Below, piece by piece: positions 37,174 through 40,468 of a stretch of DNA of 64,000 bases. Made by a program: the position numbers and the translations under genes. The notes under the pieces are model-generated. The model did not search any database and was not told the origin of the DNA. It saw nothing but the letters and a program-made list of their open reading frames with translations. The stretch lies in assembly GCA_963674595.2 (NCBI GenBank), contig CAXXFV010000023.1, positions 384,001 to 448,000 of the forward strand. Reading direction: 5' to 3'. Position 1 is the stretch's first letter; every line of letters starts with the position of its first letter. This stretch comes from a bacterium (GTDB lineage Bacteria; Zhuqueibacterota; Zhuqueibacteria; Residuimicrobiales; Krinioviventaceae).

Positions 37174-37247
<74 letters not shown>

Positions 37248-37603
37248 AAGATTTTATTGACTTTTGTTTTTAAGATACCTGCATATTTCAAGATATCTGG
37301 TAGAAAAGTCATTAGAAAATTAATTTAGCACAATTATAATTAAAATTCAAGATAAAATTATTTTATTCTGTTACTTTTTATCTTTAAAATTCCAATTTCA
37401 CGGGGACTAAATATTAAAATTTATATCGTGATAACAGCCTCTTTTATCCCTTTATTTTAGTATATATTGATAAAAGTATCATAATATTATGGGAATGATT
37501 TCCTTTTATGATTTTTTAATGTTAATCCAAAACGAGGATTTATTATTCAAGCTTTCAGATCGTGTAATTGATAATTAACTTTATCCGATCAAACTTAAAT
37601 ATA

Positions 37604-37632
37604 TTGACAGGACCGTTCGAAAAGAGCATGAT
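37604..37632 (+). promoter_or_regulatory. Putative sigma70 promoter for leader ORF and TonB receptor
   Basis: TTGACA-N17-CATGAT. Confidence 0.55.
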
Positions 37633-37745
37633 CTGTTGATTTTTAAGGAATGAACTTTAGCAAACAAGAGTTGTAAGTAAGTGTTGGAAAATTGAATATT
37701 TTTTTTAACATTAAGGTCGAAACGAGATAAAAAAATAAAGAGAAT

Positions 37746-38063
37746 ATGTTTACAACAATTCAAAACAAATCTTTTAAAAATCATGCATATCTTCTGATTG
37801 CGTTCGCCTGCCTTTTGCTTCTGTTAAGTGCAGGGCAGGATTTGTTTCACAATCACGAACCCGATTCCAAGACACACCAGGATTGTCCTGCCCATCAGAT
37901 TTATCTCATGTTGAGTGCAGCAATTGTGTGCGACTGTGCGTATTGGCTTTTTTATCTCATTGCCCTCATTGTCAAATGGATTTTTCGCCTGGCGAAATAT
38001 TCAATCTCTTATACTTTACATCATTCCCGCGCTCCGCCCTTTCAATTAATGAAAATTGCATAG
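37746..38063 (+). CDS. Putative metal-sensing leader/arrest peptide (DUF2946/CruR/CutF-like)
   Basis: N-terminal hydrophobic segment, HNH...HQDCPAH, second hydrophobic segment with CDC, HHSRAPP near the C-terminus; stop 38 nt before the TBDR start. Confidence 0.75.
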   Translation: MFTTIQNKSFKNHAYLLIAFACLLLLLSAGQDLFHNHEPDSKTHQDCPAHQIYLMLSAAIVCDCAYWLFYLIALIVKWIFRLAKYSISYTLHHSRAPPFQLMKIA

Positions 38064-38093
38064 ATCTAAAAAATTTTTCAAAAATTGAAAGGG
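38037..38093 (+). promoter_or_regulatory. mRNA hairpin sequestering the Shine-Dalgarno of the TonB-dependent receptor
   Basis: CCCTTTCAATT (38037-38047) is the exact reverse complement of AATTGAAAGGG (38083-38093). Inner stem TGAAAA (38050-55) / TTTTCA (38075-80). SD GAAAGGGA lies before ATG 38102. Confidence 0.75.
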
Positions 38094-38101
38094 ATGTAAC
38101 C

Positions 38102-40468
38102 ATGTCTTTATATTTTAAAAACTGGTCGTATCTTATTGCCTTTCTATGCCTGTTTTGTATTGTATCTTTGTCGTTCGGCCAGTCGACCTATGGAAGTATA
38201 GAAGGCATAGTTGTGGACAATCACAATAATCCTTTGATTAGTGCTGATATTTTGCTGCCAGCTTTGGAACGCGGGGCAAGCACCAATCGAGAAGGGAAAT
38301 TTCAAATCAAACAAATCCCTGCAGGGACTTTTAAAGTTGTTGCCCGATATATTGGATATCAATCAATAACACAAGATATTACGGTTGTCGGTGGAAAATC
38401 CAGCCAGATGCAATTTTCGCTTCACCAATCTGTGCTGGAATCGGAACCTATTGTGGTAACCGGAAGCCCAATTGCGTCTGATCCATTAAGTTCTCCTCAA
38501 GACATAAACTATATATCCGGACGAGAAAAGATCCGGCTGCAATCCACATCTCTTGGAAAAACCATCGAATCCATTCCCGGTATTTACAATATGTCTGCCG
38601 GATCGGTGGCAGGAAAGCCTATCATTCGCGGTCAGACAGGTGAACGCATCCGTATCCTGAACGACGGAGTAGCCCAGGAGTATCAGCAGTATGGCGAACG
38701 TCATGCACCTAACCTGGATCCCTTTAATGCAGAGCGGGTGGAAATTATCAAAGGTGCGGCCAGTTTGCTCTATGGTTCCGACGCATTGGGTGGAGCTGTC
38801 AACCTGATTCCCAACCGGTTTCACATGTCTTCCGGCAATGAAGCGGATTTTAACGGTTCGTTTACAAGTGCATGGAATTCGAATAACAATGAGCTGATGA
38901 CGGGTATTAAATTCGGTGCGTCTTCCGGTAATTTAGGATTGACCGGATCGCTGGTGAGGAAAAGCGCCGGCAATTTTCATACACCTGATATAGCAACTTT
39001 TTTGGAAACCGGAAAAAACGGTGATCCGAAATTTACTGATGAAATAGATAATACTGATTTTGATCAGATCAACGGTTCTTTAGCGGCAGGATTATTGACC
39101 AGAGCAGGTCTCTTTTCTGTTCATTATGATCATTATTTTAATGAAAATAATTTTCTTTTACCTGCCGGAACGCCTATCGGGCTGAGGCTTGAGAACCAAA
39201 CTATTTTTACCAAGGGCAATATGCCCATGGGGCGTTTTATTTTTAAACCAAAGTTGAGCTTCCAACGCAATCACCGTCAGGCAGCCAAAGCCGGACAGTC
39301 ACGTGATGTATTGCCTGACTCGGCTGTTGTAGATTTAGTACTGGATGTGTATACCGCCCGTTTTGACGTTGAGCATATTGACATTTCCCGTTTTTCCGGA
39401 ACAGTCGGTGTGGAAGCTAAATATTATGATCATGAAAATAACGGTAAGGTACCTCTTCAACCGACCGGACATTTTACCAATATTGCCATGTTCGGATTTG
39501 AAGAGTGGCAGGCGGAAGAACTCACTTTGAATTTCGGGGCGCGCTTTGATCATCGTTCCCAAAAATTCATTGCGTCGTCTTCCAATCCTTTGTTGCCGGT
39601 AGACGATGAAAAAACCTTTTCGTCTTTTTCCGGCGCTTTGGGAGCTTCTTATAAATTATCGACTATGTTGACACTGGCCGCAAACCTGGGTCGGGGATTC
39701 AGAACGCCCAGTTTTTATAATATGTATGTTTACGGCTACCATGGAGGTGTTTTCGCCTATCAAATCGGTAATCCGGATTTAAAGAATGAAACATCGCTGG
39801 ATATGAGCGCCTCGCTGAGACTGCGCAGCCGGCGTGTTGAAGCCTCGGCAACGGTCTTTCAGAATAGAATTAATAATTATATTTTTCTGTATAATGCACC
39901 TAATCATGAACTGGCACCAGGGGGAGAAACCTTTGTTTTTGCCCACGATCAGGCTGATGCGGTGCTTACCGGTTTCGATATAAGTATCAGCGCTACCGTA
40001 TTGGACTGGCTGGTCCTCAGCGCCAACGGATCGACGATTCGCAGTGATTTTGCCAGCGGACCTCATGATGGAAATGAACTTCCATTGATGCCGGCAGATC
40101 GTGTCTGTACGCAAGCTCGATTCCTGCTGCCCGGTACATCCGTTTTTCATTCTCCTTATATTCTGTTTAATTTAAAACATGTAGGAGACAAGGATGCTGC
40201 CGGTATTTACGAACCCTTTGGTCAGTTTGATGATGGTATCGGTCCAAATATTCCTTTTGGTGTGGCTTCTACAAAAGCTTATACCGTATTAAATGCCGGA
40301 TTTGGTTTTGATTTAAATATTTCGAAACGATTCATTAACATAGACCTGGAAATCACTAATTTGCTGGATAATGATTATAGAGATTTTCTGGATACGTATA
40401 AAGGCTATACCCTGGCACCTGGCCGGAGTGTAAATTTAAAATGTAATGTGGCTTTGAATAGTAATTAA
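38102..40468 (+). CDS. TonB-dependent receptor, probably a metal transporter
   Basis: Signal peptide, carboxypeptidase-regulatory-like N-domain, IVVTG, plug KPIIRGQ.GER...ERVEIIKGAASLLYGSDALGGAVN, GFRTP, GNPDLKNE, NLLD..Y...PGRS. Confidence 0.93.
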   Translation: MSLYFKNWSYLIAFLCLFCIVSLSFGQSTYGSIEGIVVDNHNNPLISADILLPALERGASTNREGKFQIKQIPAGTFKVVARYIGYQSITQDITVVGGKSSQMQFSLHQSVLESEPIVVTGSPIASDPLSSPQDINYISGREKIRLQSTSLGKTIESIPGIYNMSAGSVAGKPIIRGQTGERIRILNDGVAQEYQQYGERHAPNLDPFNAERVEIIKGAASLLYGSDALGGAVNLIPNRFHMSSGNEADFNGSFTSAWNSNNNELMTGIKFGASSGNLGLTGSLVRKSAGNFHTPDIATFLETGKNGDPKFTDEIDNTDFDQINGSLAAGLLTRAGLFSVHYDHYFNENNFLLPAGTPIGLRLENQTIFTKGNMPMGRFIFKPKLSFQRNHRQAAKAGQSRDVLPDSAVVDLVLDVYTARFDVEHIDISRFSGTVGVEAKYYDHENNGKVPLQPTGHFTNIAMFGFEEWQAEELTLNFGARFDHRSQKFIASSSNPLLPVDDEKTFSSFSGALGASYKLSTMLTLAANLGRGFRTPSFYNMYVYGYHGGVFAYQIGNPDLKNETSLDMSASLRLRSRRVEASATVFQNRINNYIFLYNAPNHELAPGGETFVFAHDQADAVLTGFDISISATVLDWLVLSANGSTIRSDFASGPHDGNELPLMPADRVCTQARFLLPGTSVFHSPYILFNLKHVGDKDAAGIYEPFGQFDDGIGPNIPFGVASTKAYTVLNAGFGFDLNISKRFINIDLEITNLLDNDYRDFLDTYKGYTLAPGRSVNLKCNVALNSN

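Follow-up and report, generated by a model that had tools for sequence, protein, structure and literature searches.

To our knowledge, only two metal-responsive arrest leaders have been studied so far, CruR and CutF. Both are proteobacterial peptides of the DUF2946 type and both sense copper, with different outputs. Here we describe a candidate leader of another type, found in a 64,000-nucleotide stretch of bacterial DNA (hereafter the window; positions 384,001 to 448,000 of the forward strand of contig CAXXFV010000023.1, assembly GCA_963674595.2, lineage Zhuqueibacterota). In the window, a 105-residue open reading frame (ORF; 37746..38063, on the + strand, as are all features below unless stated) stands before the gene of a TonB-dependent receptor (38102..40468) and carries near its end the putative arrest motif Arg-Ala-Pro-Pro (RAPP), whose codons contribute to a stretch complementary to the receptor's Shine-Dalgarno (SD) sequence. 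We consider it probable that the two genes form an operon in which translation of the membrane-inserted leader controls translation initiation of the receptor. More tentatively, we propose that the leader stands for a family of its own among nascent-chain sensors, without recognisable membership of DUF2946, in which a periplasmic His3/Asp/Cys loop would sense zinc, or possibly heme, at the arrested ribosome, with a 47-residue ruler between loop and arrest motif and with Pro-Pro codons that double as anti-SD sequence; we regard this fuller reading as possible rather than probable.

CruR (Bordetella pertussis BP2923; DUF2946) leads the cruR-bfrG(crtA)-bp2921 operon and combines a CXXC motif with RAPP. 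According to the available text of PMC9426467, its arrest is required for downstream expression and prevents Rho-dependent termination, metal relieves the arrest, and the spacer between metal motif and RAPP in CruR and DUF2946 is 45 residues, plus or minus 1-2, with regulation impaired when five residues are added; arrest of CruR at the Pro-Pro codons has been shown in vitro by toeprint (PMC12992588, available text). Like CruR, the present leader is a small peptide, predicted to be exported, that stands first in an operon with a TonB-dependent transporter, has a metal-ligand motif in the exported part and RAPP a few residues from the stop codon, and holds the two at a fixed distance, 45 residues in CruR and 47 here. 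However, the CXXC of CruR is replaced by a single invariant Cys in H-x-H-x2-D-x3-H-x2-C-P, and the spacer, soluble in CruR, here contains a second hydrophobic helix. Where CruR acts through Rho-dependent termination in a 162-nucleotide (nt), GC-rich intergenic region, we find an SD-masking hairpin made of the stall-site codons themselves. More than 75% of crtA loci have a PepSY_TM gene (PMC12914433, available text), whereas none follows the receptor here, and CruR belongs to Pseudomonadota, whereas the present leader comes from a Calditrichota/KSB1-type lineage.

CutF (Rhodobacter capsulatus; DUF2946), the leader of cutFOG, is closer in the way its output would be achieved: a copper-induced stall opens a stem-loop over the SD of cutO, so that in both systems a ribosome stalled on an exported metal-binding leader would open the structure shielding the SD of the next gene (PMC9973294, available text, and the discussion of a preprint). 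The parts differ. CutF has CXXXC and an EF-P-dependent PPP stalling motif, its anti-SD (CTTC) is described as part of the intergenic stem-loop between cutF and cutO, in contrast to an anti-SD formed here by the arrest codons themselves, and copper induces the stall in CutF, where the regulated gene is a detoxifying oxidase and not an uptake receptor. The localisation-monitoring arrest peptides of SecM-secA, MifM-yidC2, VemP-secDF2 and ApdA/ApdP share with our leader an N-terminal localisation signal and a C-terminal arrest motif (RAGP or RAPP); in these, a pull on the nascent chain ends the arrest, and arrest exposes a downstream ribosome-binding site (RBS) (PMC10951233, available text). They monitor the activity of Sec or YidC and regulate that same machinery, in contrast to the substrate-uptake receptor and invariant metal-type ligands found here. 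Judged as an arrest peptide, our leader has the conserved R-A-P-P (elsewhere RGPP or RAGP) near its C-terminus, and its downstream RBS lies in a structure that an arrested ribosome would disrupt, the latter by computation only and with a relief of ~5 kcal/mol.

Leaders of this general kind are known. In a 2025 survey of 52,895 GTDB genomes, upstream ORFs with RAPP or RGPP were enriched ahead of TonB-dependent receptors in Gram-negative phyla, RAPP being otherwise depleted in proteomes, and our leader fits the class surveyed, being shorter than 300 residues, carrying a localisation signal and RAPP close to its C-terminus, and having a TonB-dependent receptor downstream; as far as its available text goes, the survey gives counts and phyla and describes neither this family's motif and spacer nor the mRNA structure (PMC12992588). 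Our full-text searches of the literature turned up no account that describes this family, links a RAPP leader to zinc or gives arrest codons the role of anti-SD, although the supplements and figures of PMC12992588 may list members.

An earlier note on this DNA had likened the leader to the DUF2946-type peptides CruR and CutF. The comparison stands for the way the leader would work, but not for membership, since the family has one conserved Cys in place of CXXC and none of the leaders scanned matched PF11162. The peptide itself gives no PF11162 match at E <= 1 (the gathering score is 23.7 bits), and PF11162 is absent among the best 25 of 68 families for the 54 aligned members, a search in which a single member with E > ~0.03 could be missed. 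Nor did it appear for eight more divergent leaders at E <= 10 or in the host genome at E <= 1. A search for DUF2946 sequences in 101 genomes around L011, a spurious hit, gave none and was made in the wrong phylum for them. Of the features by which DUF2946 leaders are recognised, the CXXC or CXXXC metal motif is lacking (the sequence reads H44-Q-D-C47-P-A-H50, with only C47 invariant); a C-terminal RAPP at a fixed distance from the metal motif is present (residues 95-98 of 105), as are a putative N-terminal export signal (helix 11-32 in the model, after Lys residues) and a place at the head of a metal-related operon (a TonB-dependent receptor in 25 of 37 loci). The sequence comparison thus does not support membership of DUF2946. 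Two divergent members, L040 (1501-1809) and L042 (1450-1797), have C-P-A-C, a CXXC, and a polar spacer, and still end in SRAPP. They may be intermediates between this family and DUF2946-type leaders, so that the two may share a remote evolutionary link.

The 105-residue ORF, its RAPP codons and its three segments were found much as the earlier note had described them. An AlphaFold2 model built on the family alignment (mean predicted local distance difference test score, pLDDT, 80.1) places helices at residues 11-32 and 48-92, a loop at 33-47 that holds the His and Cys residues, and a disordered RAPP tail. The first helix, preceded by Lys, would be a signal anchor or signal peptide (37776..37841). 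It is followed by the putative ligand-binding loop H-N-H-E-P-D-x3-H-x-D-C-P (residues 35-48; 37848..37889) and by a second hydrophobic segment, TM2 (residues 52-80; 37899..37985), which makes up most of the spacer, constant in length and variable in sequence. The ORF ends ...HHSRAPPFQLMKIA (...HHS-R-A-P-P-FQLMKIA), with R95-A96-P97-P98 specified by CGC GCT CCG CCC (38028..38039). From the geometry of ApdA/ApdP and CruR, the P site of a stalled ribosome would be expected to contain CCG (38034-38036) and its A site CCC (38037-38039).

Nine homologues of the leader were found by a word-indexed search, and an exhaustive search (E <= 1e-3, clustering at 50% identity) yielded 53 cluster representatives. 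A profile search matched 51 proteins, none with a Pfam domain; their source names are 'hypothetical protein' or absent, with one exception labelled TRAP transporter small subunit. In a protein atlas the nearest clusters are likewise unnamed hypothetical proteins, the sole named family being DUF2607 at rank 22. Within the host phylum, 56 of 167 genomes, spread over 45 of 100 genera, encode a member; records from the host order and class are titled candidate division KSB1 and Caldithrix, and other matches bear the title Neomarinimicrobiota. One candidate member, at locus L011, was rejected, the motif being absent there and the hidden Markov model match (E-value 7e-4) falling on another ORF. Mean column identity in the alignment of 54 sequences is only 18%, yet H35, H37, C47 and P98 are invariant and N36, D40, H44, P48, R95 and P97 are at least 90% conserved, giving the family motif L-H-N-H-x-P-D-x3-H-x-D-C-P ... 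R-[AGS]-P-P. Judged by this conservation, the leader ORF is a real gene of an unannotated family.

The earlier note had named conservation of the upstream RAPP ORF, along with that of the stem, among the points on which its proposal should stand or fall, and [RKH][AGS]PP occurs near the C-terminus in 41 of 41 real related loci. Among the 49 members scored, the motif is RAPP in 38, RSPP in five, RGPP in five and HAPP in one; of the five left unscored, one is without a RAPP-like end, two have KAPP, and two have RAPP or RSPP without H44. All 49 scored members keep 46-49 residues between Cys and Arg, exactly 47 in 32 of them, while the sequence of this spacer varies. The tail after Pro-Pro ranges from 1 to 69 residues, is not conserved, and is therefore unconstrained as protein. 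The arrest motif is under selection as peptide, given that the codons for R, A and the first P vary synonymously in the group of relatives that we call class-a loci. At L002, L003, L004, L014, L044, L048 and L051 the leader ORF has no early stop and continues through the 3' arm of the hairpin described below; a recurrent ...QNLKG... in these read-through leaders is the translation of that conserved RNA arm, and in the four genome loci measured (L002-L004, L014) the ORF overlaps the start of the receptor gene by 17-43 nt. RAPP and the arms are thus conserved, but the place of the stop codon is not.

The second element is the RNA that these codons form. CCCTTTCAATT (38037-38047), comprising the second Pro codon and the Phe-Gln-Leu codons, is the exact reverse complement of AATTGAAAGGG (38083-38093), and forms the 5', anti-SD arm (38037..38047) of a hairpin. 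An inner 6-base-pair (bp) stem (38050-38055/38075-38080) with a loop containing the leader stop codon (38061-38063) occupies 38050..38080, and the 3' arm (38083..38099) holds an SD-like AAGGGA (38089-38094). Both the 11-bp pairing over the receptor SD and the inner stem had been claimed from the letters, and a fold over 38010-38125, a slightly wider range than had been proposed, recovers them, the main stem as 10 bp (38038-38047/38083-38092) in the minimum free energy (MFE) fold. At -24.1 kcal/mol, the MFE lies below the mean of -12.1 for shuffled sequences (z = -4.85), and 0 of 200 shuffles fold as well. An additional 7-bp helix (38016-38022/38093-38099) shuts the RBS up to 2 nt 5' of the AUG. 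The 3' end of the 11-bp pairing lies 8 nt from the receptor ATG at 38102, a start that is backed by homologues whose N-termini align from it. Taking AAGGGA as the SD is reasonable because the host genome (6.6 Mb, 38.8% G+C) uses SD sequences: GGAG stands at -20..-5 in 24% of 2,706 long-ORF starts against a background of 2%, with a peak at -11..-9, and AAGGGA, at -13..-8, overlaps this peak. An Rfam scan returned no family over the leader or the hairpin. We also considered whether the hairpin could be an intrinsic terminator and rejected this, there being no U-run 3' of the stem and no terminator-like site on the + strand there. Four near-identical strains from public runs vary too little in the stem for a pairing test.

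The stem recurs in homologous loci with compensating changes. In class-a loci the conserved intergenic 3' arm AAAATTTGAAAGGGA (14 loci) pairs with CCN-TTT-CAR-AT, and where the tail codons differ between loci the 3' arm differs correspondingly. Thus CCUCCCGG faces CGGGGAG at L006, CUCCCUUC faces GAAGGGAG at L016, and CCUCCC...AUAUUGUG faces ACAUAUUAGGGAG at L013, a paralogue from the host genome; at L036 and L035 the arms are GUUGUCCUUGUA with UACAAGGAGGAC and CCGCCUGUGUG with CACAGGAGG. At L029, UAUCUCUCCUUUUAAAAU and AUUUUGAAAGGAGAUA lie ~170 nt apart, the Arg codon being 206 nt from the ATG, and L047, a metagenome locus, keeps both arms over 286 nt from Arg codon to ATG, ~3 times the usual distance. 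Stems reach 11-20 bp. In 20 of 28 loci the MFE fold joins the A-P-P codons plus the next four with the region from 18 nt before to 2 nt after the ATG by at least 8 bp; z-scores for these 28 folds came from mononucleotide shuffles and are rougher than the -4.85 of the main locus. Mean duplex energy is -12.7 kcal/mol for the arms' own partners and -9.0 for swapped partners, a difference that 0 of 10,000 permutations reach. Sliding windows along the leader mRNA (~100-170 for each locus) placed the SD window's best partner within 21 nt of the Arg codon in 22 of 34 loci; windows so placed make up ~1/7, so that we estimate ~5 loci by chance. In the alignment of 14 class-a sequences, pairing is kept in 86.9% of cells, changes on both sides are seen for 4 of 12 pairs (1 of 500 shuffles), and shifting the 3' partners by one column lowers pairing to 70% or 58%. 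On this comparison, the pairing is a feature of the family and not a local accident. Loss of the ORF or of the stem in homologous loci, which the earlier note had set as grounds for refutation, is not what we find, and its proposed mechanism withstands these comparative checks.

How would a ribosome act on such a hairpin? A ribosome's footprint reaches from ~-12 to +15 around the P-site codon, and the whole 5' arm would therefore lie inside a ribosome arrested at RAPP. For a model, a 28-nt footprint was moved along the mRNA, the bases under it were barred from pairing, and the cost of opening 38085-38114 was calculated over the ensemble. Opening the RBS costs 17.4 kcal/mol without a ribosome, 15.5-19.3 with codons 73-93 in the P site, and 12.2-12.9 with codons 94-104, the minimum of 12.2 falling at codon 97, the arrest position; with the last sense codon in the P site it is again 15.2. 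In this model, the arrest site is the position where a ribosome best keeps the RBS open. The earlier note's suggestion that a stalled ribosome frees the receptor SD is borne out by the model as to place and only in part as to extent, since the relief amounts to ~5 of ~17 kcal/mol, and we take the model to describe a real but partial effect at equilibrium, not as proof of a switch.

The receptor itself has 788 residues, with CarboxypepD_reg, Plug and beta-barrel domains, and seven full-length class-a receptors aligned are 61-70% identical. The leader stop codon is 38 nt from the receptor ATG; among class-a relatives the gap is 58-90 nt in five loci, and four overlap by 17-43 nt. In a census of 37 unique genome loci, the studied one included, the next gene is a receptor like the studied one (~788 residues) in ten, and in 15 a lipoprotein of 150-280 residues that belongs to no known family, has an N-terminus of the D-H-D-H-A-E-A type and stands before a CarboxypepD_reg receptor, so that a TonB-dependent receptor lies downstream, directly or after the lipoprotein, in 25 of 37. 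Four loci have a ~520-residue lipoprotein without a family, six have other unnamed exported proteins, and two end before the next gene. Upstream genes are unrelated between loci, and the leader therefore usually heads the unit.

The host genome holds a second copy of the leader (98 residues, ending in KRGPP; L055 6827-7123), and its context bears on the ligand. It lies in a cluster (L055 4349-9847; C16:256348-261846) of a ZnuA-like substrate-binding protein, an ABC ATPase, an ABC-3 permease, the leader, a 151-residue lipoprotein of no known family and a receptor. The binding protein matches PF01297 (1.1e-64), and the best NCBIfam matches of the ABC genes are AztC for the binding protein, MntA and then AztA for the ATPase and AztB for the permease, with ZnuA/C/B matched too, all below cut-off. 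The cluster's receptor (CarboxypepD_reg) has ZnuD as its best NCBIfam match (3e-42, 145 bits, far below cut-off), and the Pro-Pro codons of this leader, CCUCCC, pair with the GGGAG SD of the lipoprotein gene. The studied receptor scores 120 bits against ZnuD NF038289, whose curated cut-off is 950, and thus falls short of that family; heme-receptor subfamilies score similarly, at 150-155 bits against cut-offs of 317-324, and the best PDB match by sequence is ZnuD 4rdr, over the plug domain only (E 5.7e-21). The leader's H/H/D/H/C set is typical of ligands for borderline metals. We lean towards zinc as the ligand, at a little under even chances, with copper, other metals and heme ranking after it. 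The Cys-Pro dipeptide of the leader and an FRxP...H...NPxL stretch of the receptor recall heme regulatory motifs and heme receptors, and heme is kept only as a minor alternative.

Based on these observations and on the studied leaders, we propose the following model. In mRNA without a ribosome, four codons, beginning with that for the second Pro of RAPP, would pair with the receptor SD and keep the RBS closed. A ribosome arrested at RAPP would prevent the hairpin from forming and make the RBS easier to open. With the ribosome arrested, 50 residues separate Cys47 from the residue in the P site, and ~50 residues is approximately the length of exit tunnel plus translocon by our estimate, a match that would explain why the spacer is fixed in length and free in sequence: the invariant His/Asp/His/Cys loop would stand ~50 residues from the peptidyl-transferase centre, on a chain just across the translocon into the periplasm. 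Binding of a ligand, most likely a metal, at the periplasmic face would alter the pull on the chain and release the arrest, termination would follow a few codons on, the hairpin would re-form and receptor synthesis would drop. By analogy with CruR, the receptor would thus be made when the ligand is scarce. What the analysis shows is the anatomy, the conserved motifs, the fixed spacer, the recurring and covarying pairing and the modelled energetics; stalling itself, the ligand, the periplasmic place of the loop and the polarity, in which the ligand frees the stall and turns the receptor off, are inferred.

Several points weigh against this proposal. The modelled relief leaves ~12 kcal/mol of structure over the RBS, and with the 5' arm covered the probability of an unpaired SD goes up from 0.01 to no more than 0.07-0.18, as this AU-rich RNA makes weak alternative pairings. 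Among the runs listed, no RNA run contains 37400-39400. Pairing is weak or absent in 8 of the 28 MFE folds, in 12 of 34 loci the SD has a better partner in some other window, and in L008, L019, L020 and L031 the gap from leader to next gene is 450-650 nt. CCNCC is by nature complementary to GGAGG, and part of any Pro-Pro/SD pairing is therefore free. The class-a arms are highly conserved, which limits covariation to 4 pairs, and the permutation tests are inflated because the loci are related and not independent. One contig of a near-identical strain carries T38086G, which would break one A-U pair, although at a depth of 2 it may be an error. The loop would be periplasmic as judged from charge and helices only. 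Finally, the znu context occurs at one locus only, that of the paralogue, and the matches of the receptors to ZnuD and heme receptors are far below the family cut-offs.

The computed results fit either sign of regulation, and the polarity could be the opposite, as in CutF, with the ligand strengthening the arrest and inducing the receptor. We think this unlikely. The regulated genes are uptake receptors, one of them in a znuACB-like cluster, and substrate repression is usual for uptake genes; moreover, CruR, the one studied RAPP leader of a TonB-dependent receptor, is released by its metal (PMC9426467, available text).

CruR also offers a precedent (PMC9426467, available text) for an arrest that acts mainly on transcription, the stalled ribosome blocking the loading of Rho and the hairpin being secondary, and such a mechanism would suit the members with spacers of 450-650 nt, where masking of the SD by RAPP codons is not evident. 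At the studied locus, however, the gap is 38 nt, and this and the short gaps and overlaps of class-a loci (58-90 nt and 17-43 nt) leave little room for a rut site. Given, in addition, that no intrinsic terminator follows the stem and that the element conserved in class a is the arm in which the SD lies and with which the stall codons pair, we hold a mainly transcriptional arrest to be improbable.

A constitutive pause at RAPP could also couple the genes without sensing, setting receptor synthesis in fixed ratio to leader translation, with the loop serving a separate purpose in the mature peptide, which could be, for example, a small inner-membrane metal-binding partner of the uptake system. 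In the model any ribosome on codons 94-104 lowers the cost of opening the RBS, and the peptide is predicted as a stable-looking helical hairpin (pLDDT 80). Yet the ruler of 46-49 residues between Cys47 and RAPP would have no purpose if sensing and stalling were unconnected, and a tail that can be as short as 1 or as long as 69 residues is more to be expected of a regulatory than of a structural peptide, so that we consider coupling of this kind quite improbable. That the ORF encodes just a small membrane protein of the ordinary sort, and that the hairpin arose by chance or follows from the complementarity of CCNCC to GGAGG, is most improbable of all: Pro-Pro codons are anti-SD-like by nature and AU-rich intergenic RNA folds readily, but stems of 11-20 bp exceed that complementarity and differ between loci in matching ways, and neither the shuffles (z = -4.85, 0/200) nor the partner swaps (0/10,000) reproduce them.

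What is new here, if we return to the proposed sensor leader, is a distinct and unannotated leader family in FCB-type candidate phyla, the kind of switch being already known from CruR and CutF. Its new features are the His-rich loop with a single Cys, a second membrane helix as ruler and arrest codons that serve as anti-SD; a link to zinc uptake is probable. The family would add a third type of leader, distinct in sequence from CruR and CutF and originating in little-studied candidate phyla of the FCB type, together with a different ligand set and probably a different metal. A common ruler of ~45-47 residues would make the geometry of trans-membrane nascent-chain sensing a testable general rule. 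If the proposal is true, the CruR spacing rule and the overlap of stall codons and anti-SD may be a general design of metal-responsive RAPP leaders in Gram-negative phyla, with sensor, brake and switch fused within ~12 nucleotides. The element is compact, 105 codons and a 38-nt spacer with all parts locatable, which makes it a handy model for studies with reporters and toeprints; translational switches that respond to a ligand might also be built from it. Such ORFs, now unannotated or hypothetical, merit annotation as regulatory leaders.

The lipoproteins found after the leader in 15 loci (e.g. L010 4463-4984 and L013 1828-2280) have a conserved N-terminal DNPV...(D/E)H(D/N)HAEAxG and no Pfam or NCBIfam match. 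In the atlas they fall next to lipoprotein clusters without names, which are most frequent in Ignavibacteriota and Balneolota, and these proteins of 150-280 residues may be metal-binding partners of the receptor.

The upstream regions of the leaders share no obvious palindrome. A 12-mer, ATCCAAAACGAG, occurs exactly twice in the 6.6-Mb genome, at 37525-37536, 220 nt upstream of the leader ATG, and on C16 at 256283 (L055 ~4284), ~65 nt 5' of the znuA-like gene with which the paralogue cluster begins; it may be a shared operator, for example of a Zur-type regulator, a suggestion made post hoc and weak. A promoter-like site, TTGACA-17-CATGAT (37604..37632), lies ~110 nt 5' of the leader ATG and is a candidate only, as such sites are not enriched in the region (11 observed, 13.7 expected). 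Of 22 single-base differences among the near-identical strains in 37500-38400, 15 fall in 37588-37735, 5' of the leader, and five in the 318-nt leader ORF (Q6H, F34L, one synonymous, and the adjacent 37977-37978 giving W78M); the stem's 3' arm and the receptor gene have one each. Upstream of the leader and diverging from it is a tRNA gene on the minus strand (37174-37247; 73.9 bits, the sole match of the Rfam scan), with a terminator-like hairpin at 37171-37142.

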